From a virus: DNA of 41,024 nt. Position 1 is the stretch's first letter. Each line of letters begins with the position of its first letter. The stretch lies in UHGV virus genome UHGV-0070243. One strand, written 5' to 3'. Positions 4,043 through 40,974 of the stretch are shown here, piece by piece. A model generated the notes under the pieces. That model was not told the origin of the DNA. It saw nothing but the letters and a program-made list of their open reading frames with translations, and made no database searches. A program made the translations under genes and the position numbers.

Positions 4043-7000
4043 AACGTTCTTCCAGAGACTGAATCCGCTCTTTTATCTTATCCATTTCTCTGCGCTGCCA
4101 TGCTGCCTCGATATAGAATAAGAGATCAGGTCTGACCCCCCATCTAGATCCTGCTGGCGTTATTTCAACGCGCTCAATGATGTCTTCCATTACCATCACT
4201 GGATTATCATCCTCATCAACAATGATGCTCCCGTCATTATCAGTCAGTGGCATTTCCCTTTGGCCAGTAATGACGTCATCATATACTGCGGGATAATCGT
4301 CATAGCAAAGAAACGCATAGCGGCATGTTGTGCTTTCTTCTTCCATGAGTCCGTGAGAAATAAGAACATCACGAAGTTGCTGCGCGATTACACCATGATG
4401 TATCCTCGCCCCTTCTTCCCCCTTTATAGCGACAGCGTTCAGCCATTTATAAGCGATATACCTGACGTCACCCCAGGCATCCAGCAATGCTTCGTCAGGA
4501 GAGACCGGCTCTGTCTTTAATGTTCCGTCACTGGTAACCACAGGATTGGAGCCAAGATAAACTGTCGAGAACCTGTTTCCCGGACCACCAAGAGCATTTA
4601 CATTATCAAGATAAGGTTTAACATCTCCGTTCTCAAAAAGATGTTCGAGTGCGTTATATACCGCGCGACGTGGAGTACTGCTTCCGGAACCATGCAACGT
4701 TATCATTGCACCATCTGCTGAAGACGTTGTTTCACCGCCGCTAACGATTAATCTCTGAGCGGTAACATCATCAGACGGTACTTTCTTCGCAATAATGGCG
4801 TAATTACCCTCAAGTTTGACTTCCGCGCGAACTTGTCCTGATGTACCTGCATGGACAGTCAGTGACTGGACGGCAACATCATCTGTGAAATCAACGGGTA
4901 CAGGAACCGTCCTCACGCCTGACGTCGACATAAAAGTAGGAAGCGTTCTGTTAGGAGTGGCTCCGTAGACAAAATCCCTTGAAACAAATTCTTCCTGTTT
5001 AATTTTCACCCTGAAACAATACAAATCAGCCGGGTGACCATCGTGAACATAAGGATATTTTCTGTTGTTATCCCCTATGCTCCATGGGTTTAGAAAGTCT
5101 TCCCCACCGAAAATGTAGTACAGCCAGTTGTCTTTGATACAAACTGAACCAACACCAACCGCAGAGTTAACTATTCCGCCCTGATAAATCTGATCAGTAA
5201 CATTAACCCACTCTACATTATCCAGACTCCACTCATTGACGTTAACTCTGGTCATAAATGTTCTTGGATAATTTCCTGCATAACGGTTATCAGGTTCTCC
5301 TCCTTCCCACTCACCAAATGCGCGCTCACTGCCAAAAATAATCAGCTCATCGCCAACTTTGGCAAAAGGAAGGTTTGAGTGATGAACATTATTTGGGAAG
5401 CGAAGAGAATTCCATGATGTACCTAAATCAGAGCTTCTGTGCAATGAACTACCGGGTTGAGTACTTAATGTCCCCCTGGTCGTCAGATACAGAATGCCAT
5501 CATAATATTTTACACATGGCTCAGATGCATTCGCCTCATATTCTGCAGGTATGCGTCTGCGAACAAAGCTACCAGGAGAACCGAAAGCATCAGAGAAATA
5601 GAGTATCCCAAGCTCGCGTGGACCAATATCACCATTATGGTAGCCAACAGCAAAACTGTTATCGCTAATCGTCGCAAAACTGTGAATCTCAGTAACAGGA
5701 GTGCTTCCGTCAACAAAAGAAGGAATAGTTCCAAGACTGGTTTTTCTCCATGGTGACGAGTGAAATGATGTACCAAAACTCCAGTATCTACCCTCGTTAT
5801 TCTGATCCACATCCTGGGTATTTTGCGTCGTAACTGTAAAAGTATTTTTATCAATAACAGTAGTCACCGTCATATTCCCGGTAACACCTGTAACACCAGA
5901 GTTTGAGAAGTTGACAAAATCACCAGCAAATAATCCGTGATCAGTAATGCGAATATAAGCGACTTGCTGATTTGCTGCTTTCGTTATACCACCATAAACG
6001 CGAAGGCTGCGACTCATTGGGCGATCCCACAACTCTGCAACCTGCAGTTTATTTCCGCTCACGGTCCGCGTCTCAATTACAGCAAAAAGGCGATTTCTGA
6101 CAACCCCCATACTCATGCAGTGATAGTTAACTGTGGGATAGTTTTCATGTAAATCTGTAAGCCATTCCGGCGTTGTCCAGGTCTTCCCGTCATCTCCTGA
6201 GCGAACCCATGCAACATGGAGGTTATTTACACCATGGCGGTCTCCAGCCATAAAAGGCGCATAGATGACATTGTCATATACAAACGTTTTATCCTGCGTC
6301 CAGGCGTTGTACCACGGTGTATCTGTAATTTTAAATAACTCTCCCTGGATAAAATCTTCAGAAGCATAAAAAAGAGGCTGACCCGGTATTCTCTCAAATA
6401 AAAAACGAGCATTTTTAAATCGGCTGACATCCGGAAGAGTTGATACTTTAAAAGTAAGCCCTAATCCGTCAATTTTATAACCTGGAGATGAGGCTTCAAG
6501 GCACGCGCTTATTGCAGTGGAATCGTCATTTATACCATCACCAACAGCTCCAAAATCTTTGGGGCTAATAGCATCACGCATTTTATCCTGGAACGTTCGG
6601 TACACAGCCCCAGAACCATACTGAATAAACCAACCAAAACCACCAACAACCCCGGCGATTGCAGCATCGACATAATTACGCATTGAGCGATTATTTACAG
6701 CGTCCTGTTCAAGTGATGGATCTGCAAGGTTAGAAATTTTGTTTTGCTTTGCATCGTAATATTTTGCAAGCAAAGATGGTTTCATCAATGCACGTCTGAA
6801 CCACCCAAAACATTGCTGGATCAGCATCGTCAGGTAGTCAAAAGCATCTTCATGCACTTCGGGGAAAAATTTTCCCTGATTGCGAAGGTCTGTCTCCTGC
6901 ACTACATCAAGCACACGATCTATCGTAATTCGCCATCCAGTAGCAAGCGGCGACGGAAGAACCACAGAACCGCCACTATAAGTTCCCGCCCCAGTTACCG

Positions 7001-7160
7001 TATAACCGGTATCCAGAACCAATTCTGTTACGTTCCCGTTCAGGTCAGACACCTGAACAACCAGGTCTGATTTTCTGAAAATTCGAAAAGTATACGGAAA
7101 CGATGTCGTAACGCCGTTACCTGTGTATTCGTTGTGGTCAACTTCGGTTGAGACCGTCAT
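4041..7160 (-). CDS. tail fibre/tailspike (1039 aa): T7 gp17-like N-terminal virion-binding domain, Asp-box beta-propeller, C-terminal intramolecular chaperone (S74-like) domain; candidate endosialidase-type depolymerase
   Basis: N-terminus EYTGNGVTTSFPYTF...VVQV resembles the T7 tail-fibre N-domain (memory); two Asp-boxes SGDDGKTW and SSDLGTSW; C-terminal region LDNVNALGGPGNRFSTVYLGS...RWGVRPDLLFYIEAAWQRRE resembles the auto-cleaving chaperone of endosialidases and long tail fibres. Confidence 0.8.
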   Translation of the reverse strand: MTVSTEVDHNEYTGNGVTTSFPYTFRIFRKSDLVVQVSDLNGNVTELVLDTGYTVTGAGTYSGGSVVLPSPLATGWRITIDRVLDVVQETDLRNQGKFFPEVHEDAFDYLTMLIQQCFGWFRRALMKPSLLAKYYDAKQNKISNLADPSLEQDAVNNRSMRNYVDAAIAGVVGGFGWFIQYGSGAVYRTFQDKMRDAISPKDFGAVGDGINDDSTAISACLEASSPGYKIDGLGLTFKVSTLPDVSRFKNARFLFERIPGQPLFYASEDFIQGELFKITDTPWYNAWTQDKTFVYDNVIYAPFMAGDRHGVNNLHVAWVRSGDDGKTWTTPEWLTDLHENYPTVNYHCMSMGVVRNRLFAVIETRTVSGNKLQVAELWDRPMSRSLRVYGGITKAANQQVAYIRITDHGLFAGDFVNFSNSGVTGVTGNMTVTTVIDKNTFTVTTQNTQDVDQNNEGRYWSFGTSFHSSPWRKTSLGTIPSFVDGSTPVTEIHSFATISDNSFAVGYHNGDIGPRELGILYFSDAFGSPGSFVRRRIPAEYEANASEPCVKYYDGILYLTTRGTLSTQPGSSLHRSSDLGTSWNSLRFPNNVHHSNLPFAKVGDELIIFGSERAFGEWEGGEPDNRYAGNYPRTFMTRVNVNEWSLDNVEWVNVTDQIYQGGIVNSAVGVGSVCIKDNWLYYIFGGEDFLNPWSIGDNNRKYPYVHDGHPADLYCFRVKIKQEEFVSRDFVYGATPNRTLPTFMSTSGVRTVPVPVDFTDDVAVQSLTVHAGTSGQVRAEVKLEGNYAIIAKKVPSDDVTAQRLIVSGGETTSSADGAMITLHGSGSSTPRRAVYNALEHLFENGDVKPYLDNVNALGGPGNRFSTVYLGSNPVVTSDGTLKTEPVSPDEALLDAWGDVRYIAYKWLNAVAIKGEEGARIHHGVIAQQLRDVLISHGLMEEESTTCRYAFLCYDDYPAVYDDVITGQREMPLTDNDGSIIVDEDDNPVMVMEDIIERVEITPAGSRWGVRPDLLFYIEAAWQRREMDKIKERIQSLEER

Positions 7161-7264
7161 GTTAAATCTCCAGATAGTCGCAGCACCCGTTGCGCCGCAT
7201 ATCTGGTTATTCTATTACCTGAAAAACCACATATGGATAGAAAGACTGTGAATACGAATAGATA

Positions 7265-7279
7265 TTACCTTTCAGGTAA
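7265..7279. promoter_or_regulatory. operator-like palindrome TTACCtttcaGGTAA
   Basis: perfect inverted repeat TTACC-N5-GGTAA; same 16-mer ATTACCTTTCAGGTAA recurs at 27563-27578. Confidence 0.6.
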
Positions 7280-7318
7280 TTTGCAAAACGTGCTGGATAG
7301 CAAACAAATTATTTGCTA

Positions 7319-7334
7319 CTGTATAAATATACAG
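7319..7334. promoter_or_regulatory. LexA (SOS) box CTGTATAAATATACAG
   Basis: matches CTGT-N8-ACAG with AT-rich centre (TACTGTATAAATATACAGTT); 8 nt upstream of ATG at 7342. Confidence 0.7.
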
Positions 7335-7341
7335 TTATTGC

Positions 7342-7614
7342 ATGGAGAAGATTAAGATGCAGCAGTATCACTATCCACTGGAAGACGGATTTACCGAAAG
7401 GATTCACACGCCGGGAGGCGTCAGGTCACTGGTGGAGGGATCGCACTTGATGAAATTACTCCGGGATCTCGATAAGGATGGATTTAATGTCGATGGCCCA
7501 CTTGCCGAACTGACTGCACTGATTAACTACGTCACCAGCTCGCAGATGTCTATGCAGGATCTGCAAACACATCTCGACTATTGTGCCGAACAATTACGAA
7601 AACAAACCAGATAA
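7342..7614 (+). CDS. stand-alone antirepressor C-terminal (ANT/KilA-C-like) domain protein (90 aa), probably SOS-inducible
   Basis: aligns by eye with the shared C-terminal domain of both antirepressors (PL..G...P.GV..L.E.S.LM.LL..L..DG..V.G..AELT...Y....D.QTH..Y); LexA box immediately upstream. Confidence 0.55.
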   Translation: MEKIKMQQYHYPLEDGFTERIHTPGGVRSLVEGSHLMKLLRDLDKDGFNVDGPLAELTALINYVTSSQMSMQDLQTHLDYCAEQLRKQTR

Positions 7615-7645
7615 GGTTTGAAATTACCAAATGGAGTGCTTATAT

Positions 7646-7660
7646 TTACCTTTGCGGTAA
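7646..7660. promoter_or_regulatory. operator-like palindrome TTACCtttgcGGTAA (extended ATTTACC...GGTAAAT)
   Basis: perfect TTACC-N5-GGTAA in the structured leader upstream of the Bro-N antirepressor. Confidence 0.6.
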
Positions 7661-7926
7661 ATTTACATCGCACTCCTCTTGTGCCATAGTAATCGGGCAC
7701 TGGCAAAATCCAGTGCCGGGATTGGCGTCCCGGGTTACTACAGAGGCACATATGCCGCATAAGCGGTTTTTTTATGTGTAAAGCGCACCTATTCTATGGT
7801 GGGCTGTGTGGGGGCACCGAAAGGTGCGCCGGGTCCTTTGTAGCCGGTTACGCCAACCCTGCACAGTTCACCACCAACCGATTGGCGTCGGTAGTGGTGA
7901 TTAACCTAACTACAAAGGTGATCACT

Positions 7927-8613
7927 ATGACTGCTAACGTAACCCCATCTGTTTTTCATTTTGAATCAGAAGCAACCATTCGAGCCATTGTTATTGATGG
8001 AAATCCTTGGTTTGTTGCCAAAGACGTTATTAAAGCTCTTCAACTGACAAACCCCACTATGTCAATAAAATCTCTTGATGATGATGAAAGGGCTAAATTT
8101 AACTTAGGCCGTCAAGGCGAAACCAATATTATCAACGAGTCAGGCCTCTACACACTGATCCTCCGCTGCCGCGACGCAGTGACACCAGGCACTATCCCCT
8201 ACCGCTTTCGTAAATGGGTTACAGGTGAGGTTCTTCCTCAGATCCGCCGCACCGGAAGTTACATTAAAAACTCGCTCCCGCAGGAAGAACGCATAAAGAT
8301 GGTTGCCGACCAGGTAGCCAACGCCACAGCATCAGCAGTGATGCAGGCAATGAAGATAGAGAACAAAACCTACAGTGCCCCGCTGAAGCCCGGCTACCGC
8401 AGTCTGATTCATTCGCCGTCGGGTGTTCTCGGCCTGACGGAGCACTCACTGCTGATGAATCTGCTGAACCAGTTACAGGAAGACGGGCATGACGTATCGG
8501 GCGCGGCGGCGGAGCTGACCACCATGTTCTGCTACATCGTCGGTGTGAGCAAATGCCTGCGTGATATCCAGACGCACGCGGAGTACATCAACGACAAGGC
8601 TGGGTTCTTCTGA
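7927..8613 (+). CDS. antirepressor, Bro-N domain + ANT/KilA-C C-terminal domain (228 aa)
   Basis: Bro-N signature FHFESEATIRAIVIDGNPWFVAKDVIKAL...ESGLYTLILRCRDA...RFRKWVTGEVLPQIRRTGSY; RBS AAGGTGA; ORF 7774..8613 trimmed to ATG 7927. Confidence 0.8.
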   Translation: MTANVTPSVFHFESEATIRAIVIDGNPWFVAKDVIKALQLTNPTMSIKSLDDDERAKFNLGRQGETNIINESGLYTLILRCRDAVTPGTIPYRFRKWVTGEVLPQIRRTGSYIKNSLPQEERIKMVADQVANATASAVMQAMKIENKTYSAPLKPGYRSLIHSPSGVLGLTEHSLLMNLLNQLQEDGHDVSGAAAELTTMFCYIVGVSKCLRDIQTHAEYINDKAGFF

Positions 8614-8638
8614 CGGGCGGCGGCACAGGGATGTGCTT
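8380..8638 (+). repeat. left arm of about 258-bp inverted repeat (about 93 percent identical to 10099..10356 on the other strand)
   Basis: encodes the near-identical last 78 aa of both antirepressors plus about 25 bp of 3' flank (shared GGCACAGGGATGTGC). Confidence 0.8.
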
Positions 8639-8679
8639 CTGACATAATCATTTGCGGTGTGATGTAGATTCACGTAAGA

Positions 8680-8694
8680 TTACCTTAAAGGTAA
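8680..8694. promoter_or_regulatory. operator-like palindrome TTACCttaaaGGTAA
   Basis: perfect TTACC-N5-GGTAA 26 nt upstream of the 8721 start. Confidence 0.6.
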
Positions 8695-8720
8695 ACCATG
8701 GGTTTACATGAGGAGGAGAT

Positions 8721-8930
8721 ATGGGATTTTGGTTCGCTCGTACAAAAACGAGGGATAATGCACCCAGCCCTCAGGCAAAAAATGCAGAAGTTCCGGCGTC
8801 AGCGCAGGTTAACAAGCGTGGTGGAGTATATATCTCATCACAGCAAATTTCTGAGCTTCCTGAGGTTAAGGAGATGCGTCGTCTCGCTGCTGCAATTGTT
8901 AAACAGGATCTTGCCACTGTAAGGAAATAG
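8721..8930 (+). CDS. hypothetical small soluble protein (69 aa), first gene of two-gene cargo operon
   Basis: strong SD GAGGAGGAG 4 nt before ATG; stop TAG overlaps GTG start of next gene by 1 nt; preferred over alternative-frame ORF 8698..8922. Confidence 0.5.
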   Translation: MGFWFARTKTRDNAPSPQAKNAEVPASAQVNKRGGVYISSQQISELPEVKEMRRLAAAIVKQDLATVRK

Positions 8931-9796
8931 TGTTGTTAGCTCTTCTAATTATCCCCATTCTGGTTAGTGGTTATATTATGATAACCGCTAACCAGTATCA
9001 TTATTTCCGTTTATACCGACATGAAGGCCAGCTTCTTTATATGAAAGTAGCTGCATTAGGTACATATTGCCTTGTTGCATCAGTAATAATTGCAGCCGCT
9101 ATAAAATATAAATGGCCTGATTTTCACCTAGTTCACGATATGGTGGAAACTTTTAATGTAACATCAAAACCAGAAACAGATAGAATTTACATGTGGCTGC
9201 TTCTTCTCTCAGCCACATCCATTTGCTTCTCTTTGTGTTATGTGTCTGTTGTGTGGGTGAAAGATTTTCTTCTTGGTTGTTTTTATAAACGTGATATTTA
9301 CGAGCAAAAAACAGAGGCAATGAAGGCCAGAGTACTGCGAAAAACTTACTCGCAAGGTTCTTTAGACTTACTATTGCTTGATGCTATTGAATCGGATCCT
9401 AAACGACCAATGTTGATTACTTTATCATCAAACAAAGTGTATGTTGGAATAATAAATGGTTCTGGTGAACCAACGGAAAATCAGGGTCCGCATCAGCACA
9501 TATCTTTTGTTCCTTTAATGTCAGGATACAGGAACAAAGAAAACTTATCTGTCACATTCACTAATGCTTATCCAGGAGAAATACAGGTCAAGCGGACTGC
9601 AGCAATAAGAGGAATTAGCAGAAAGAAAGTGCCAGGACTTGAGATCATGGTGTCTATTGACGAAATAAGTTATATATCATGGTTTGATTTTGAAGTATAT
9701 AAAGCAACAAATAACAAAGTAGAATCCAGGGGGCACGTTATTCGTGTTACCAAAAATGGAAGAAATATATATCAAAGAAATAGCAAAAAAGAATAG
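8930..9796 (+). CDS. hypothetical membrane protein (288 aa): three or four N-terminal TM helices plus about 160-aa soluble C-terminal domain
   Basis: GTG start with RBS AAGGAAA; visibly AT-rich codon usage unlike flanking phage genes; followed by terminator. Confidence 0.6.
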   Translation: MLLALLIIPILVSGYIMITANQYHYFRLYRHEGQLLYMKVAALGTYCLVASVIIAAAIKYKWPDFHLVHDMVETFNVTSKPETDRIYMWLLLLSATSICFSLCYVSVVWVKDFLLGCFYKRDIYEQKTEAMKARVLRKTYSQGSLDLLLLDAIESDPKRPMLITLSSNKVYVGIINGSGEPTENQGPHQHISFVPLMSGYRNKENLSVTFTNAYPGEIQVKRTAAIRGISRKKVPGLEIMVSIDEISYISWFDFEVYKATNNKVESRGHVIRVTKNGRNIYQRNSKKE

Positions 9797-9817
9797 CCCG
9801 CGCTGCGGGCTTTTTTG
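9795..9817 (+). terminator. rho-independent terminator after membrane-protein gene
   Basis: AGCCCGC-gct-GCGGGCT followed by TTTTTTG. Confidence 0.7.
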
Positions 9818-9888
9818 TGGACGAAACAAAAGCCAGTGCTACACTCATTGACGCCACATTGAGGTGGCTTATAGATGGAAATTTCACA

Positions 9889-10050
9889 ATGAAAAAAGCA
9901 TTTGCTGCACTGTTCGTTTTGTTGTCTCTGGTAGCTTCAACTCAGGCCTTTGCCGGTCGTTGTCAGCACGACAGCGATACCGCCGCTGACGGCTCCCGCT
10001 GCGGTGGGCGTTCTGCGGATTCCCGCCCGGGCGGCGGTGGCATTCGTTAA
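9889..10050 (+). CDS. small secreted Cys-containing peptide (53 aa precursor)
   Basis: signal peptide MKKAFAALFVLLSLVASTQAFA then 31-aa Gly/Arg/Asp-rich region with 2 Cys; ORF 9817..10050 trimmed to ATG 9889; weak RBS. Confidence 0.4.
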   Translation: MKKAFAALFVLLSLVASTQAFAGRCQHDSDTAADGSRCGGRSADSRPGGGGIR

Positions 10051-10055
10051 AAACA

Positions 10056-10073
10056 AGGCCGCGAAAGCGGCCT
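10056..10073 (-). terminator. hairpin AGGCCGC-gaaa-GCGGCCT with U-run on the minus strand; terminator of ant
   Basis: 7-bp GC stem; minus-strand transcript continues into TGTTTTTAA; adjacent palindrome GTGACATGTCAC at 10074-10085. Confidence 0.55.
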
Positions 10074-10098
10074 GTGACATGTCACGATAGTTCCTTTT

Positions 10099-10356
10099 TG
10101 CACATCCCTGTGCCTCCGTTCTGTCAGAAGAACCCTGCCTTGTCATTGATGTACTCTGCGTGAGTCTGGATATCACGCAGGCATTTGCTCACACCAACGA
10201 TGTAGCAGAACATGGTGGTCAGCTCCGCCGCCGCGCCCGATACGTCATGCCCGTCGTCCTGCAACTGATTCAGCAGATTCATCAGCAATGAGTTCTCCGT
10301 CAGGCCGAGAACACCAGACGGCGAGTGAATCAGGCTGCGGTAGCCGGGCTTCAGCG
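10099..10356 (-). repeat. right arm of about 258-bp inverted repeat (partner of 8380..8638)
   Basis: reverse complement of 8380..8638 matches with a handful of substitutions. Confidence 0.8.
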
Positions 10357-11068
10357 GATAACCATAACATTTTGTCTGTGTTTTAATTGCCTCACGAAGC
10401 GCATCTAACATCTTGACTGCCACTTCATCATTCTCTGATGCAGATCCAGCAGGGAGATACTCCCCTTCAAGCGGAACCCGAGCAACAAGAGACAACGCTT
10501 CGGCGAATTGATCTTCATCAATTTCTTTGTACGAACAGCCAAAATGAGATTTCAGTGACGACCACATGGTGATCATCGCCTTAGCCTGTTTTTCTTTTGG
10601 CAGAGACTGACCGCGACTCATGACGAGTTGTTTAATGGCTTCCTGCTGTTCAGTGGTTATTTTACCCGGCAACGCCTTTTTAGCTTTGCGTGGGTTAACC
10701 ACATGGCCTTTAGTCCAGTACTCGTAGAGCACATCGTCACACTCTTCCTGATACTGGATTACCTTGTCGCGGATTTCAGGACGGACTTTGTTAGGGCTGA
10801 TGGTTTGCAACCAGCCAGCAAGTTTGCGAAGTGCCAAACAAATAATCTCACGGCGCTGTTCATCCCCAGGAAGCTGCATTGTGATTTTCACAATGCAGGT
10901 TTTAAACCGCTGCTTCATTTTCGTAAACTGTGAAGCCCAATCCATACCCATTCCCTCAACGATAGGCTTCATTGGTGTGTACGGTTCGCCGTTGTGATTG
11001 ACAACATAAAGTTCTACGCCGTGGAATGGCACGTTGATAGTAGATACCGCTGTTGCTATACTCGTCAT
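10124..11068 (-). CDS. ant: antirepressor Ant-like (314 aa): Ant N-terminal domain + shared ANT/KilA-C C-terminal domain
   Basis: N-terminus VPFHGVELYVVNHNGEPYTPMKPIVEGMGMDW and KVRPEIRDKVIQYQEECDDVLYEYW recalled as P22 Ant-like; downstream of arc-like gene as in P22 immI. Confidence 0.7.
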   Translation of the reverse strand: MTSIATAVSTINVPFHGVELYVVNHNGEPYTPMKPIVEGMGMDWASQFTKMKQRFKTCIVKITMQLPGDEQRREIICLALRKLAGWLQTISPNKVRPEIRDKVIQYQEECDDVLYEYWTKGHVVNPRKAKKALPGKITTEQQEAIKQLVMSRGQSLPKEKQAKAMITMWSSLKSHFGCSYKEIDEDQFAEALSLVARVPLEGEYLPAGSASENDEVAVKMLDALREAIKTQTKCYGYPLKPGYRSLIHSPSGVLGLTENSLLMNLLNQLQDDGHDVSGAAAELTTMFCYIVGVSKCLRDIQTHAEYINDKAGFF

Positions 11069-11140
11069 GTCGTTAATTCCTATACGTAGTTTTACGATAC
11101 TGAAGCCCTGACGGTCTGGCCACCGTTGGGCTTCGCTGTT

Positions 11141-11308
11141 TTATGCCACGCTATTCTTCTCACCAGTGAGTCCATACACTTTCCTCAGCTGATAGATAAT
11201 CTCTGTATTGAACTTTCGGCATTCTTTTTCGCCATTTCTTTCAATAGCTAACTTCACATCGTCCGGAAAACGAACTCGTCGTTGACACATCTCTTTTGCT
11301 TTTTGCAT
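11141..11308 (-). CDS. arc: Arc-like ribbon-helix-helix repressor (55 aa)
   Basis: MQKAKEMCQRRVRFPDDVKLAIERNGEKECRKFNTEIIYQLRKV resembles P22 Arc (beta-strand then NSEIYQR helix); RBS AAGGAG 9 nt upstream; ORF 11141..11344 trimmed. Confidence 0.65.
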   Translation of the reverse strand: MQKAKEMCQRRVRFPDDVKLAIERNGEKECRKFNTEIIYQLRKVYGLTGEKNSVA

Positions 11309-11428
11309 TTCATATCTCCTTAGCCCCACCGTGGGGCAAAACAATTGTCACACCGTGCGTCATTGATGTCAAGCACACGGTGAGGCATACTTCAATCATT
11401 GCAAGTAACTCAATATTTGGTGAAGAAC

Positions 11429-11860
11429 ATGAGCAGAGAAGATCCACAACTAAGGATCAGACTTCCCGTTGAAGTAAAAGAAAAAATAGAAATTTCTGCA
11501 AAAGCCAATAAGCGATCAATGAACGCTGAAATAGTACAACGTCTTGACACCAGCTTTCTGAAAGATATTCATGAAGATGACGTAATTTCTGCTTATGAAG
11601 CAAAAATTATTGCAAACAATGCACGGCATGAAATATCAAATATTATTTTCAAAAGAACCTTTAATGAAATTAATAAGAAAATAACACTTGGACATACAAG
11701 TTTTTATATAAACCTTAATGACCTTGAACTGGAATCACTTGCAGATAATGATTACCAGATCATCTTTGAAAAAACATTTAATAAGCTCAATGAACTAGGT
11801 TACATCATCTGTGAAAACTCATGGGATGCAGATGGTTTTGGAATTGAAATACCTGAATAG
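11429..11860 (+). CDS. mnt: Mnt-like ribbon-helix-helix repressor with about 60-aa C-terminal extension (143 aa)
   Basis: MSREDPQLRIRLPVEVKEKIEISAKANKRSMNAEIVQRL resembles P22 Mnt N-terminus (DDPHFNFRMPMEV...ANGRSMNSELLQIV); divergent from arc; AT-rich. Confidence 0.65.
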   Translation: MSREDPQLRIRLPVEVKEKIEISAKANKRSMNAEIVQRLDTSFLKDIHEDDVISAYEAKIIANNARHEISNIIFKRTFNEINKKITLGHTSFYINLNDLELESLADNDYQIIFEKTFNKLNELGYIICENSWDADGFGIEIPE

Positions 11861-11950
11861 GAAGAACAAAAGGCGTGTACATATTACACGTCTTTAATAC
11901 AATTGAAAAACGCCACATTACTGATGTATGTTACAACAAGGAGCGATATT

Positions 11951-12514
11951 TTGAAAACCATATCTATATTAAAGGTTGCATTAGGCGTCGCTATTATTTT
12001 GACTCTCTCAATATTGTTTTATTTTTACCACAAAAAAACAGCTATTGCTCTTGATGGTCACGCGGCAAACTCATTTTTCTCAGAGTACATAGTGCCGCTA
12101 TCAGGAAGCGGTATAACAAATAAATATACTGACTATGACATCAAATATGGAATTGATGATGGGGAGACTATTGTATTACATGTAATCATTAAAAACCTAA
12201 TGACAGTAAATAAAAATACAGACTTCAACGATAAAAATACAATACATCACAACAACAGCAAAACATTAATTTCTTATAGTAGCAACATCTATACGGATAA
12301 ATACCTAAAATACATCTCAGAAGATACAATAAAAGCAACCAGCGAAAAGTTAAAAAACATATATTGTGCATCCGGCAGTTTTCACAAATTATCGCCGCAA
12401 GAGCGTTTATTCTACGAAGCAAGAAAACAACGTAAGTCAATAATATTACATTATTATGCTGATTCAGGGGAGTCACTCATATTTAATATTGGGGTTTCCC
12501 CTGAATCATGCTAA
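11951..12514 (+). CDS. hypothetical membrane-anchored protein (about 188 aa) in the position P22 sieA occupies; candidate superinfection-exclusion/abortive-infection protein
   Basis: TTG start with perfect SD AAGGAG 7 nt upstream (alternative ATG 11924 lacks an RBS); one TM helix ISILKVALGVAIILTLSILFYFY; very AT-rich; sits between mnt and the core-protein operon. Confidence 0.5.
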   Translation: MKTISILKVALGVAIILTLSILFYFYHKKTAIALDGHAANSFFSEYIVPLSGSGITNKYTDYDIKYGIDDGETIVLHVIIKNLMTVNKNTDFNDKNTIHHNNSKTLISYSSNIYTDKYLKYISEDTIKATSEKLKNIYCASGSFHKLSPQERLFYEARKQRKSIILHYYADSGESLIFNIGVSPESC

Positions 12515-23529: not shown

Positions 23530-23580
23530 CTTCTTTCTCCATTAGTGGGTCTGTTACGACCCACAGGTTAATAACAGGCG

Positions 23581-27900: not shown

Positions 27901-27977
27901 GTGGCATTAGCTCAGTTGGACAGAGCAACCGCCTTCTAAGCGGTTGGTCGCAGGTTCGAATACTGCATGCCACGCCA
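27901..27977 (+). tRNA. tRNA-Arg (anticodon UCU), 77 nt, with a G:A mismatch in the T-stem
   Basis: acceptor GTGGCAT/ATGCCAC, discriminator G, CCA encoded; D-arm GCTC/GAGC; anticodon stem ACCGC/GCGGT with loop CTTCTAA; T-arm GCAGG-TTCGAAT-ACTGC; overall very similar to E. coli argU (memory). Confidence 0.8.
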
Positions 27978-36735: not shown

Positions 36736-37320
36736 ATGAAAAGTATCCAGGACGTCCGCAGGCAAAATCTCAACGACTTGATCGACCGTGAATTCAATGG
36801 TGTTCAGACGCGGATGGCAGAAAAACTTGGAACTCAGGCAAATCTGGTAAACCGCTGGGCTCTTGGCAAGAAGGTTATCGGCGACCAGGTTGCGCGAAAA
36901 ATTGAAGCTGCCGCCAATAAACCCCGTAACTGGCTTGATATCGATCGCTCGCTTTCTCAGGAAGGTTTTCAGCCTGTCGGCCCAAGCGACATTGGTCAGC
37001 TGGCGGCTCACAACCTGGAACGCTGGATGAGCGAAAGCCGCGACCTTTCAACACAGGGAAAACTTCACCGCGCATCCGGCGTCGCCCAGGTGACAATCAG
37101 CCGCCTGTTAAACAATGAGGTCAGCGTTTCCATTTCCACCCTGGAGAATGTTGCATCCGCATTCGGGCGTCACGGCTATGAATTACTGATTCACCCGCAC
37201 GACCCTGCGACTATCAACTATGACCGCTCGCGCTACGCATTGTTACCCGAAACAGAGAAGGCAAAGATCGAAAGTTACATTGAATTTGTCATCAGCCAGA
37301 ACGAAAAAAACAAACAATAA
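36736..37320 (+). CDS. tandem-HTH (two XRE-type domains) repressor-like protein (194 aa), no S24 peptidase domain
   Basis: two HTH segments (GVQTRMAEKLGTQANLVNRWALGKK and HRASGVAQVTISRLLNNEV); cI-like position between OR-like and OL-like operator clusters; own terminator. Confidence 0.6.
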   Translation: MKSIQDVRRQNLNDLIDREFNGVQTRMAEKLGTQANLVNRWALGKKVIGDQVARKIEAAANKPRNWLDIDRSLSQEGFQPVGPSDIGQLAAHNLERWMSESRDLSTQGKLHRASGVAQVTISRLLNNEVSVSISTLENVASAFGRHGYELLIHPHDPATINYDRSRYALLPETEKAKIESYIEFVISQNEKNKQ

Positions 37321-37628: not shown

Positions 37629-37928
37629 ATGAACGTTAATCAGCAGAAAAATCTTCAAAAAATCATGCAGGCATTCGACAAGGACTACCACCTGTCAGAA
37701 CAGCTATATGACCGACAAGTTGAACTGATTGAGAGCATCCGACTTCATCAACTGTCATCAACTTTCGACGTTGTAACAGGCAAAGGCGTTCGTCAGGAAG
37801 TACTGGAGGCTGCTAAAGACAGCCCTGAGTTCGAAGAACTGATGGATGCCTATCGGCGAGAGGCAATGGCAATTATCGCCCGCTGGGATCTGGCGGATCA
37901 GCTTGATGGACAGAAGGACGCGGCATGA
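37629..37928 (+). CDS. hypothetical early protein (99 aa)
   Basis: SD GGGAGGG 6 nt before ATG 37629; ORF 37614..37928 trimmed; overlaps exonuclease start. Confidence 0.5.
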   Translation: MNVNQQKNLQKIMQAFDKDYHLSEQLYDRQVELIESIRLHQLSSTFDVVTGKGVRQEVLEAAKDSPEFEELMDAYRREAMAIIARWDLADQLDGQKDAA

Positions 37929-38746
37929 AACCGGGAATTTATTTCGGCATCAGCAACGAAGACTACCACGCAGGTGACGGCGTGAGTAAGTCGCAACTGG
38001 ACATGGTTGCCAAGAATCCGGCGCTTCTTAAATGGGTTCAGGCAGCACCAGAAGACGAAGAGAAAAAGTCTGCATTGGATATGGGAACCGCATTGCACTG
38101 CCTGCTTCTGGAACCTGGAGAATTCGACAAACGCTTCATCGTGTCACCGAAATTCGATCGTCGGACAAAACAAGGTAAAGCTGACGAAGAAGCATTTCTT
38201 CGTGATGTGGCGGATATGGGTATTACGGTACTTGATGTCGAGCAGTGGCGAAAACTTGAGCTCATGCGTGATAGCGCAATGGCTCATCCGGCGGCACGCT
38301 GGATGTTGGAAGCACCTGGTTACTGCGAAGCATCAATGTACTGGAACGATGAAGAGACGGGTGAGTTGTGCCGAATTCGTCCAGACAAATGGCTGAACGA
38401 GCACAACGTGATCGTCGACGTGAAAAAGGTTGCAGATATGGACCGTTTTGCACGCCACATCGAGGAATTCCGCTACCACGTGCAGGACGCAATGTACCGC
38501 GAAGGCGCAACGAGGGTTACTGGTCAACCGCATGGTTTTTTCTTTCTTGCCGTGAGCGAAAGCATTGATTGTGGTCGGTATCCGGTACGCGTGTTCGAGT
38601 TGGATGCGCCGGATGTCGATGCCGGGCACGCTCTGTTCCGCCGGGATCTGAATACCTATCACGAATGCCGCATAAATGATGAATGGGGCGGCGTGGAAAT
38701 TATTAAACGCCCTGACTGGGCACGTAAACAGGATATGTATGTATGA
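37925..38746 (+). CDS. RecE-like PD-(D/E)XK exonuclease (273 aa)
   Basis: nuclease motif RIRPDKW...IVDVKK; immediately upstream of and overlapping the RecT/Bet gene. Confidence 0.65.
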   Translation: MKPGIYFGISNEDYHAGDGVSKSQLDMVAKNPALLKWVQAAPEDEEKKSALDMGTALHCLLLEPGEFDKRFIVSPKFDRRTKQGKADEEAFLRDVADMGITVLDVEQWRKLELMRDSAMAHPAARWMLEAPGYCEASMYWNDEETGELCRIRPDKWLNEHNVIVDVKKVADMDRFARHIEEFRYHVQDAMYREGATRVTGQPHGFFFLAVSESIDCGRYPVRVFELDAPDVDAGHALFRRDLNTYHECRINDEWGGVEIIKRPDWARKQDMYV

Positions 38747-39624
38747 GCAATGATATCGCAATCACATCACAACCAGGCGCAACTGTAGGCACTGCTGCGG
38801 CAATCTTCAGCCCCGAGGGCATGAATCAACTGGTGCGTTTCGCGGAGTTGATGTCACAAAGCAAAGCGACTGTACCGAAACATCTTGAAGGCAAACCTGC
38901 CGATTGCCTGGCGGTGACTATGCAGGCGGCACAGTGGGGAATGAACCCTTTCGCCGTGGCGCAGAAAACGCATGTGGTAAACGGAACGTTAGGCTACGAA
39001 GCACAGTTGGTAAACGCGGTCGTATCCTCTTCCAGCCTGCTGGCGACACGCCTGAATTATCGCTGGAGCGGTGACTGGTCGAATGTTAACGGCAAAACAG
39101 ATAAATCACCGAATCTGACGGTAACTGTGTCAGCAGTTCTTAAAGGTGAAACAGAACCCCGTGAGCTTACCATCAGTATGGCGCAAGCCGGAGTGCGTAA
39201 CTCTCCATTGTGGGAACAGGATCCGCGCCAGCAGCTTGCCTATCTTTGCACGAAACGATGGGCTCGCCTGCACGCTCCTGATGTGCTTCTCGGTGTTTAC
39301 ACCCCTGACGAATTACAGGAAACGGCACCGCGCGTTGAGCGAGACATTACTCCGCAAACAACTACTGCTGCGGGAATGAACAGTCTGATCAACGCTAAAC
39401 CAGTGAAAAAGCCTGATGAGCAAACTCGTAAAGCGGATAGCCGTGATCCAGAAGAAATGCTGATGGCCTTTACCAGCGCAGCGATGAATTACAGCACTGT
39501 CTCCGAACTGGATAAGGCTTACAAATACATTGCACAAAAACTTTCAGATGATGACGAACTGCTGGCAAAAGCCACCGACGTTTACAGCGTTCGTCGGGAA
39601 GAATTAAACGAAACATCTATGTAA
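38743..39624 (+). CDS. bet: RecT/Bet-family single-strand annealing protein (293 aa)
   Basis: segments resembling lambda Bet (e.g. ERDITP; memory); gene pair with upstream exonuclease. Confidence 0.7.
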   Translation: MSNDIAITSQPGATVGTAAAIFSPEGMNQLVRFAELMSQSKATVPKHLEGKPADCLAVTMQAAQWGMNPFAVAQKTHVVNGTLGYEAQLVNAVVSSSSLLATRLNYRWSGDWSNVNGKTDKSPNLTVTVSAVLKGETEPRELTISMAQAGVRNSPLWEQDPRQQLAYLCTKRWARLHAPDVLLGVYTPDELQETAPRVERDITPQTTTAAGMNSLINAKPVKKPDEQTRKADSRDPEEMLMAFTSAAMNYSTVSELDKAYKYIAQKLSDDDELLAKATDVYSVRREELNETSM

Positions 39625-40031: not shown

Positions 40032-40331
40032 GTGAGAAAGTTAAGCCGACTTGAAAAATACCACATGAATAAGGTTTCAATGCGCAGTCCGTCAAAGATT
40101 GTCGCCGTTACTCCTGCGGCGATAGAGATCGAAAAACGCGCGATTGAAAGAGAGAAAAAAGGGCAGTTCCGCATTGCCGCTCACCTTTGGCTTCAGTGTA
40201 TGGATGTTGCTTCTGGTGATGTTGAACGTGCAAGGATCGCGGTTCGCAGGGACCAATGTATCACAAAAGGTAACGGCCTTCGCCGTGGCGACTATAGCGG
40301 CATAGGATGTTGTGGGGTGGTTTATGACTAA
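40032..40331 (+). CDS. hypothetical protein (99 aa)
   Basis: ORF track; start uncertain (GTG 40032 or ATG 40065). Confidence 0.4.
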   Translation: MRKLSRLEKYHMNKVSMRSPSKIVAVTPAAIEIEKRAIEREKKGQFRIAAHLWLQCMDVASGDVERARIAVRRDQCITKGNGLRRGDYSGIGCCGVVYD

Positions 40332-40974
40332 GAAATACACACTAATCTATGCAGATCCACCCTGGGTATACCGGGACAAAGCCGCAGATGGTAATCGCGG
40401 TGCCGGTTTTAAATATCCAGTTATGAGTGTGCTGGATATCTGCCGCCTTCCTGTGTGGGATTTGACCGCTGAAAACTGTCTGTTGGCCATGTGGTGGGTG
40501 CCAACACAACCACTCGAAGCACTAAAAGTTGTTGAAGCCTGGGGATTTCGTCTGATGACGATGAAGGGCTTCACGTGGATAAAATGTGGTAGTCGACAAC
40601 CAGATAAACTGGTTATGGGTATGGGACACATGACTCGCGCCAATAGTGAAGATTGCCTGTTTGCGGTAAAGGGAAAACTACCTACGCGCATTAATGCAGG
40701 GATCGTTCAGTCATTTACCGCACCGCGGCTTGAGCATTCAAGAAAGCCAGATATCGTTCGTGAAAAACTTGTGCAATTATTAGGCGATGTTTCTCGCATT
40801 GAACTGTTCGCCCGCCAGACGTCTCATGGCTTCGATGTTTGGGGTAATCAGTGCGAAGACCCGGCAGTGCAACTACACCCTGGATACGCGTTGGATATTG
40901 GCGGATTAACAAATGCATTCAGCAATGCTCCGCTGTCACCAACAGACATCCAGGGGCGGGAGCGTGCTGCATGA
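40324..40974 (+). CDS. MT-A70-family N6-adenine DNA methyltransferase (216 aa), orphan
   Basis: catalytic motif DPPW (IYADPPWVY) near N-terminus; no adjacent restriction gene in the window. Confidence 0.75.
   Translation: MTKKYTLIYADPPWVYRDKAADGNRGAGFKYPVMSVLDICRLPVWDLTAENCLLAMWWVPTQPLEALKVVEAWGFRLMTMKGFTWIKCGSRQPDKLVMGMGHMTRANSEDCLFAVKGKLPTRINAGIVQSFTAPRLEHSRKPDIVREKLVQLLGDVSRIELFARQTSHGFDVWGNQCEDPAVQLHPGYALDIGGLTNAFSNAPLSPTDIQGRERAA

Follow-up and report, generated by a model that had tools for sequence, protein, structure and literature searches.

The virus genome UHGV-0070243 is studied here as a stretch of 41,024 nucleotides (the window), which forms the right part of an epsilon15-like (Uetakevirus-like, TL-2011b-like) prophage adjoining the host genes yfgH and yfgI. 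Two antirepressor genes face each other in this prophage, and their 3' ends form an inverted repeat (8378-8637 and 10099-10358) that encloses a small gene cassette. The repeat is read here, with a probability of roughly 0.75, as the footprint of two convergent modular antirepressors with a shared tail that binds the prophage repressor Rep and acts as a passive recombination joint. The locus behaves as an example of ordinary phage mosaicism and not as a dedicated switch. The anatomy of the repeat, the variation of its arms among related prophages and the exchange and inversion of the enclosed cassette are described and discussed below.

The inverted repeat and its coding content

A repeat search of positions 7000-12000 returned a single large inverted pair, 8345-8614 and 10123-10392, which is 270 nt long and 90% complementary. 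Alignment of one arm against the other (MAFFT and pairwise alignment) showed that they are clearly similar at the DNA level and delimited a core of ~93% identity, in which the left arm, 8378-8637 on the plus strand, is matched by the reverse complement of the right arm, 10099-10358 on the minus strand. Of the 261 alignment columns in this core, 241 are identical, and the arms differ by 18 mismatches and a single 1-nt indel. Uninterrupted identity extends over at most 59 bp (8482-8540), next to further perfect runs of 32, 23 and 21 bp. Each arm holds the last 77 codons of its gene, the stop codon and ~24 nt of 3' flank, and the identity drops off sharply on either side of the core, directly past the 3' flank. 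The two 77-codon products differ at two residues (H/N and E/D). The first-pass annotation of this DNA had placed the arms at 8380-8638 and 10099-10356 with an identity of about 93%, which agrees with the alignment within 2 nt. A chance origin is impossible for a repeat of this length and identity (260 nt at ~93%). The same architecture is present in TL-2011b and in dozens of complete genomes, and the probability that the repeat reflects chance similarity or an assembly artefact is practically nil.

The left arm is the end of a gene on the plus strand (7927-8613, 228 aa) that encodes an antirepressor with an N-terminal Bro-N domain (Pfam, 8e-20), and the right arm is the end of a gene on the minus strand (10124-11068, 314 aa) that encodes an antirepressor with a P22_AR_N domain (Pfam, 3.7e-44). 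Pfam and Rfam matches thus uphold the earlier naming of both genes as antirepressors and place the second one within a P22-like immI module. The C-termini of both proteins match PDB 5D50_E, the antirepressor Ant of phage SPC32H, over residues 3-79 of its 86 residues (E = 1.9e-13 for the Bro-N protein and 1.4e-13 for the P22_AR_N protein). By homology, therefore, the arms encode paralogues of the SPC32H antirepressor Ant, and the inverted repeat is the predicted repressor-binding end of two antirepressors. The first-pass annotation had not recognised this domain in the arms. In the passages of PMC9638917 and PMC9986798 that cite Kim et al. 2016, Ant of SPC32H is stated to bind Rep and to dissociate the Rep tetramer, with the Rep-Ant contact made through the C-terminal tetramerisation domain of Rep. 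A repressor of the same type is present in this prophage (36736-37320, plus strand; full-length match to PDB 5D50_A, E = 4e-42) and is the presumed target of all Ant-domain proteins encoded in the window. The Bro-N antirepressor is 82% identical to ORF4 of Uetakevirus ZX5, with one residue different within the arm, and it has been reported that overexpression of the ZX5 ORF4 antirepressor lowers prophage titres ~1000-fold (PMC9782041).

A third, diverged copy of the domain is encoded by a stand-alone ant gene on the plus strand (7342-7614, 90 aa), which is the orthologue of SPC32H Ant (PDB 5D50_E, E = 4e-47) and is 43% identical to the arms (BLASTP). All three Ant-domain proteins are predicted from these homologies to inactivate the resident SPC32H-type Rep, and they appear to be placed under three different circuits: LexA for the stand-alone gene, a candidate Rep operator with a C4/isrK leader for the Bro-N gene, and Arc/Mnt/sar for the P22_AR_N gene. 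Control of Salmonella prophages by SOS-induced antirepressors has been described (Kim & Ryu 2013, to the extent that it is cited in PMC7380047). In the window, a perfect LexA-box consensus, CTGTATAAATATACAG, lies just upstream of the stand-alone ant gene (7319-7334) and may serve LexA; it is the sole intergenic copy, and two others at 23551 and 28093 are far from the locus. A pattern search of the window found no LexA box before the Bro-N and P22_AR_N genes, so for the fused proteins an Ant-like action with different regulation is predicted.

The candidate Rep operators are palindromes of the form TTACC-N5-GGTAA, of which the window holds 10 copies against 0.04 expected. Three copies surround the rep gene (36666, 37378 and 37440), and three others lie over the -10 element of promoters in the stand-alone ant region (7265-7279, upstream of the gene), at the Bro-N gene (7646) and at the cassette (8680). 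The Bro-N transcript would start from a promoter-like sequence on the plus strand (TTGAAA-17-TATATT, 7618-7660), which overlaps the palindrome at 7646-7660. As a separate observation, TTACC-N5-GGTAA sites outside the immunity region, near tRNA, terminase and replication genes (27564, 31132, 34280, 34342, 36666, 37378 and 37440) suggest that the Rep regulon may be wider than the classical operator pair.

Antirepressor heads joined to a common tail

The variation of the locus was studied in 85 sequences: the window, 79 IMG/VR loci with the arm protein and five other loci. Loci from phages and complete genomes were collected in addition. In these loci, the same tail is carried by Bro-N, P22_AR_N, AntA (PF08346) and ORF6N (PF10543) heads. 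The wider family is small, with only 34 clusters found by an exhaustive search of 1.84 billion representatives followed by Pfam. Its members are either stand-alone proteins of ~86-95 aa or proteins that end in the domain, preceded by an AntA, Bro-N, Rha or ORF6N head; the Rha heads are present in more distant members. A protein homologue search with the 82-aa arm returned short proteins only and no fusions, and is uninformative on architectures.

Two pairs of closely related prophages show how heads are exchanged. The sequences of MCJCHV-1 and SCU-387 agree at 99.9% as far as a position within the distal arm, where the former goes over to a Bro-N gene and the latter to P22_AR_N and immI. Likewise, MCJCHV-1 and CUVET21-H2 are 99.7% identical rightwards from the 5' edge of the proximal arm, and leftwards the two differ in carrying AntA and Bro-N heads, respectively.

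Variation of the arms among related prophages

The number of arms differs between the loci, with one arm in 59 of the 85, two in 25 and three in a single locus. Paired arms are always convergent and 0.7-1.7 kb apart, and all arms end at one and the same 3' boundary nucleotide, 24 nt beyond the stop codon. The 111 arm copies comprise 94 distinct DNA sequences (~96% identical) that encode essentially three protein variants, and the polymorphic sites are distributed accordingly: 38 third-position, six first-position and one second-position. All four gametes are observed at 314 of the 741 pairs of informative sites. Blocks of single-nucleotide polymorphisms (SNPs) cross arm positions and head types, as in the case of a block from the distal arm of the window that recurs in the proximal Bro-N arms of other phages. 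The arms are copies of a single module that recombines freely under strong constraint.

These data also bear on the possibility that recent duplication or ongoing gene conversion within each genome (concerted evolution) keeps the two arms alike. Three loci (L064, L033 and L075) do have nearly identical arm pairs or private shared SNPs, as would be expected from such a process. However, across the 22 dereplicated two-arm loci, the identity of arms within a locus (0.9594) does not significantly exceed that between loci (0.9584; permutation p = 0.30), and the arm pair of the window itself is among the most divergent (0.937). The differences between the arms of the window change two residues only, the population polymorphism is mostly third-position, and the distal-arm blocks of the window recur in proximal arms elsewhere, all of which argue against concerted evolution. 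Because arms within a genome are no closer than arms of different genomes, their likeness stems neither from recent local duplication nor from local gene conversion, and this explanation is very unlikely.

Cassette content and exchange

The cassette starts directly after the left arm. Its head (8653-8694, plus strand) contains a promoter-like sequence, TTGCGG-17-TAAGAT, with the -10 element overlapped by a candidate operator, ATTACCTTAAAGGTAA, and the palindrome itself, TTACCTTAAAGGTAA, is located at 8680-8694. Two genes follow on the plus strand, encoding a 69-aa protein of phrog_5739 with a function that is unknown (8721-8930) and a 288-aa protein of phrog_3630 (8930-9796). A model of the latter, of moderate confidence, has a helical N-terminal region with membrane helices by appearance and a C-terminal Sm/LSm-like barrel. 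Behind these genes there is a bidirectional terminator-like hairpin with a T-run (9795-9811), followed by sec (9889-10050, plus strand; phrog_14503, 2e-40), a gene for a small secreted or membrane-associated protein of 53 aa with a signal-peptide-like N-terminus. A census showed that sec is the conserved tail common to most cassette types. A second terminator-like hairpin (10056-10073, minus strand) would act on leftward transcription. The enclosed operator site, two-gene operon, terminators and secreted-peptide gene of the first-pass annotation are thus all present as features, and its AT-rich interior applies to 8638-9787 (38.4% GC) but not to 9788-10098 (53.4% GC), compared with 47.5% in the window. 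The cassette proteins match only families of 'unknown function' or 'membrane (associated) protein' in PHROGs, and none was matched in PADLOC at E <= 0.01.

A comparison of related prophages showed that the cargo at this locus is variable, with at least six types: no cassette (loci L036, L041 and L084), sec alone, the 69-aa and 288-aa genes with sec, two versions with a YafO toxin, a 210-aa protein with or without sec, a DUF2335 pair with sec, and stacked cassettes in MS 196-1. Different cargo is found among phages with flanks that are >95% identical. Collinear homology to the window ends at 8636 in 42 loci and at 8694-8724, in the shared operator region, in 26 more; it resumes at 9786-9811, at the bidirectional terminator, in 45 loci (47 with two at 9773) or at 9970-10033 in 25. 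As homology breaks and resumes at these places, the exchanged unit is ~8637-9787, between the 3' edge of the arm and the terminator/sec tail. In single-arm relatives, homology to the window extends as far as 10075-10089, and the right arm is therefore part of a separately acquired immI block that starts at ~10090.

The locus had been described as a moron slot that is swappable by recombination. In such a slot, defined by the pair of inverted repeats, cargo would enter by a double crossover in the arms and would be expressed in the lysogen. Several observations fit this: the cargo differs between phages with nearly identical flanks, the left homology break is exactly at the left arm edge in 42 loci, the cassette has its own promoter-like site, terminators and low GC, and cassette-free relatives exist. 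However, every cassette type also occurs in the 59 single-arm loci, placed between the Bro-N gene and the virion operon, which largely refutes a slot defined by two repeats. Furthermore, the right homology break lies at the terminator/sec tail instead of the right arm, the right arm belongs to the immI insertion, and if two phage genomes recombine by a double crossover in inverted arms, this alone cannot swap the enclosed DNA while keeping its orientation fixed. Swapping of cargo among close relatives is thus retained from the earlier description, the repeat pair as its defining element is not, and the slot in this form is improbable.

The term moron is doubtful as well. A hallmark of morons is expression in the lysogen. 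The cassette does have the structure of one, with a promoter-like head, terminators, cassette-free relatives and a GC content of 38.4% against 47.5%. However, all cassette heads start directly after the arm with a promoter-like sequence, the -10 of which overlaps a candidate ATTACC-N5-GGTAA/GGTGA operator. Because such an operator over the -10 of every head predicts repression in the lysogen, the cassette would not fit the definition; it is probably repressed by Rep in the lysogen and expressed on derepression.

Some further variants of the region have been observed. In MS 196-1 (L086, 7392-10464), a Bro-N arm and an ORF6N arm enclose a stack of two cassettes, and the inner sec-like gene (55 aa) ends in GGGTGMCL, reading into sequence of the arm 3' flank (GGCACAGGGATGTGC), which looks like a recombination scar. 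A second variable slot is present between the stand-alone ant and Bro-N genes (L003, 7981-8709; also L015, L016, L018 and L026). It contains either a 242-aa protein with endonuclease VII/HNH-like zinc-ribbon matches (phrog_6762) or an inverted YafO-like gene, and it is empty in the window (7615-7640).

Cassette inversion in relatives

The earlier suggestion that the repeats could permit inversion has been substantiated, as the same cassette is found in both orientations between the same arms. The cassette is reversed, with flanks and heads collinear, in SCU-387 (L087) relative to L030 and L010, in MCJCHV-1 (L088) relative to L030, and in L064 relative to L023. Because the flanks and the antirepressor heads stay collinear while the cassette is reversed, the breakpoints lie inside the arms. 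The distal side of SCU-387 has the architecture of the window (P22_AR_N and immI) with the cassette flipped. A query of the stand-alone ant gene, the arm and the inverted sec gene was used to find further flips. The sec gene adjoins a convergent arm in 71 complete Escherichia coli genomes, and in 33 of these the arm is the proximal one, which is the flip signature. Allowing for shared ancestry, there are at least three independent flips, those of 210-aa/sec, YafO/sec and sec alone, and no flips were found among the 59 single-arm loci. A chimeric query of Bro-N, arm and inverted sec gave six full-length matches, which are Bro-N genes in the distal position and were rejected as inversions.

A second kind of flip has been observed as well, in which the entire Bro-N-cassette-Bro-N block is reversed (L021, 6265-9523, against L065; also L085, which is CUVET21-H2). 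Its breakpoints lie in the most-conserved 50-100 bp of leader/promoter repeats and not in the C-terminal arms. As the whole block flips at the leader repeats, the two antirepressor genes trade positions.

Inversion raises the possibility of a programmed switch (phase variation), in which frequent flips would let the cassette be read from either the Bro-N side or the immI side. Both orientations do occur in nature, only where two arms are present, and a flip would place the cassette downstream of the transcription unit of the other antirepressor. Against this, a Pfam scan of the ORFs of the locus and of part of the other window ORFs revealed no invertase or other site-specific recombinase. The breakpoints fall anywhere within 260-430 bp of long coding homology, or in the leader repeats for the block flips, without the short crossover sites of the Gin/Cin/Hin type, and homologous recombination is feasible since the arms of the window share perfect runs of 21 to 59 bp. 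The orientation is stable in ~30 complete genomes with one arrangement, and no unflipped near-identical counterpart of this clonal flipped group was found; the best unflipped matches are only 94.4% identical, and there is thus no evidence of ongoing switching. Orientation should also matter little because every cassette has its own promoter. A programmed switch is accordingly most unlikely.

Proposed model

In the proposed model, the Ant domain is present three times in the prophage under different controls: alone behind a LexA box, fused to Bro-N, and fused to P22_AR_N in immI. Each of the three control circuits could then trigger derepression through inactivation of Rep. The domain and its 24-nt 3' flank behave as one recombining allele pool across phages, with the protein under strong purifying selection. 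Because the tail is long and conserved, it serves in this model as a passive joint for homologous recombination, which could be carried out by the host RecA or by the phage RecT with the PDDEXK exonuclease. Three outcomes have been observed in relatives. Different N-terminal heads are spliced to the same tail; the 3' edge of the left arm is the left joint of cassette exchange, with the terminator/sec tail as the right joint; and the cassette is occasionally inverted where a second arm faces the first. The cassette itself would be a transcription unit controlled by a Rep operator, probably on at derepression rather than in lysogeny. Genes for RecT and a PDDEXK exonuclease (DUF3799) are located at 37925-39624, and their products are plausible agents of short-homology recombination at the locus.

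Some points weigh against this model. One is the sharp conservation of the 24-nt non-coding flank. The Rep binding of the fused arms is predicted from homology; with an identity to the stand-alone Ant of only 43%, the fused domains may instead act on another repressor, which would amount to prophage cross-talk. The operators have been assigned from motif enrichment and position, and the cassette promoter was read by eye and scores under the scan threshold. In addition, the 33 flipped genomes are largely clonal, so that independent flips are few, and one flipped locus (L064) was assembled from metagenome data, where a 432-bp repeat of 98.8% identity could have been given the wrong orientation.

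A more far-reaching version is speculative and unlikely. In it, the Ant tail and its sharply bounded 24-nt flank would be a selected 'linker' that makes the locus a shuffling platform driven by recombination, with heads, cassettes and orientation permuted around the repressor-binding module. A flip would move the cassette out of the Bro-N transcript, with its Rep/C4 control, and into the immI transcript under Arc/Mnt control. The cassettes, all with predicted Rep-operator control and some of them encoding YafO toxins or membrane proteins, would provide host-takeover or abortive-infection functions triggered by induction, fired when any antirepressor, even that of an invading phage, removes Rep.

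The prophage and its immunity genes

The prophage is an epsilon15-like, K1-specific prophage of E. coli. Supporting genes in the window encode a GP7-family capsid protein, a T7 gp14-like internal virion protein, an SLT-domain protein, a lysis cassette and a tailspike with endosialidase (K1) domains. The locus, read from left to right, consists of the tailspike gene (minus strand), an operator-type palindrome, the LexA box, the stand-alone ant gene, the promoter/operator, the isrK and C4 RNAs and the Bro-N gene, followed by the cassette, the P22_AR_N gene (minus strand), sar, the Arc-like gene, the Mnt-like gene, a membrane-type ORF of 187-203 aa and the virion operon (minus strand). With yfgH and yfgI of the host marking the end of the prophage, the phage also has genes for a tRNA-Arg(TCT) and an MT-A70-family methyltransferase (654-1727, 27901-27977 and 40312-40974 for these features together).

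The leader of the Bro-N gene holds two RNA elements on the plus strand: an isrK-family RNA (7697-7773; Rfam RF01394, 74.7 bits, gathering score 50) and a C4 antisense-RNA family element (7792-7878; RF01695, 79.5 bits, gathering score 45). They suggest that the Bro-N gene may be under RNA control of the P1 c4-ant or Gifsy-1 isrK-anrP type. Because the mechanical ORF (7774-8613) overruns the leader RNAs, the start of the gene is probably 7927 rather than 7774.

The immI module is of the P22 type. Next to the P22_AR_N gene, it has a match to the sar antisense RNA (11070-11137, plus strand; RF00262, 45.2 bits, just above the gathering score of 43), an Arc-like repressor gene (11141-11308, minus strand) and a gene for a Mnt-like Arc-family repressor (11429-11860, plus strand; Pfam Arc, 1.2e-14; start taken from the AR_0085 annotation). 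The Arc-like ORF is named after the TL-2011b annotation and its start follows a 168-bp annotation in relatives; it has no Pfam match of its own at E <= 0.01. With this sar match, which is placed between the ant and Arc-like genes, the set of P22-type immI elements in the epsilon15-like phage is complete. The ORF after the Mnt-like gene (11903-12514) has ~32% GC, encodes a hydrophobic stretch at the N-terminus and is located where P22 carries sieA; it belongs to phrog_8033 (unknown function) and has a weak ThsB/TIR-like match in PADLOC (E = 0.0059).

Likeness to known systems

The window combines an SPC32H Rep-Ant system, a P22-type immI and an RNA leader of the P1/Gifsy type in one epsilon15-like prophage. 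As far as SPC32H is covered by the accounts of Kim & Ryu 2013 and Kim et al. 2016 (PDB 5D4Z and 5D50), the window likewise has Rep and a LexA-box stand-alone Ant beside the tailspike gene. It differs in that the Ant domain is also the C-terminal module of Bro-N and P22_AR_N proteins, which have no LexA box and are regulated in other ways. The literature searched contained no description of fusions of this kind. With P22, the window shares the P22_AR_N antirepressor, the Arc-like and Mnt-like genes and sar, in the same order and orientation, whereas the phage itself is epsilon15-like (GP7 capsid family, epsilon15-type tailspike N-terminus and SPC32H-type Rep). For the C-terminus of its P22_AR_N protein, the Pfam search gave no family at all, not even P22_AR_C. 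As this C-terminus is an SPC32H-type Ant domain, the presumed target belongs to another repressor family than that of P22. The C4 and isrK matches directly upstream of the Bro-N gene resemble the leaders of P1/P7 c4-icd-ant and Gifsy-1 isrK-anrP, but the leader in the window also carries a predicted Rep operator.

Domain shuffling among the Bro-N, KilA-N, AntA, Rha and ORF6N phage regulators has reportedly been known since the work of Iyer, Koonin & Aravind in 2002. Here too, alternative N-terminal modules are joined to a common C-terminal module, and the homology boundary is the domain boundary. In contrast to the known cases, the shared C-terminal module is structurally characterised and repressor-binding, and near-identical phage pairs show the swaps. 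Morons and the mosaic module boundaries of temperate phages, including 'boundary sequences', are said to have been described by Juhala et al. in 2000 and Clark et al. in 2001. The cassette is likewise an independent low-GC unit that is present, absent or replaced, with sharp joints reused at the arm 3' edge. Unlike in morons, the promoter of the cassette carries a putative operator of the phage repressor, and lysogen expression is not expected. The mosaic joints and the domain shuffling at this locus are of a kind already described for phage regulators.

The Mu G and P1 C segments (Gin/Cin) are also found in both orientations between inverted repeats. In the present case, however, no invertase was found in the ORFs covered by the Pfam scan, there are no short crossover sites, the repeats are 260-430 bp of coding sequence, the flips are rare and clonally stable, and a flip switches no coding sequence. 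An earlier description of the inverted-repeat/cassette architecture was not found in the literature searched, which is weak evidence.

Implications for phage mosaicism

The reading of the repeat as the tail of two modular antirepressors gives a concrete molecular meaning to a feature that resembles the signature of a mobile element. Since the repeat is the shared repressor-binding domain of differently regulated antirepressors, a single prophage appears to bring inputs from SOS, antisense RNA and Arc/Mnt together on one repressor. The locus is also a well-sampled natural example of phage mosaicism at the resolution of domain boundaries, in which near-identical prophage pairs differ only by the head spliced to the shared tail, and inversions are confined to loci with two copies of the tail. 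Should the cassettes indeed be controlled by the repressor, they would represent a class of accessory genes that is expressed at derepression and not in lysogeny. This would bear on the annotation of prophage 'cargo', as several of the cassettes are now labelled as morons or as toxins of toxin-antitoxin systems.

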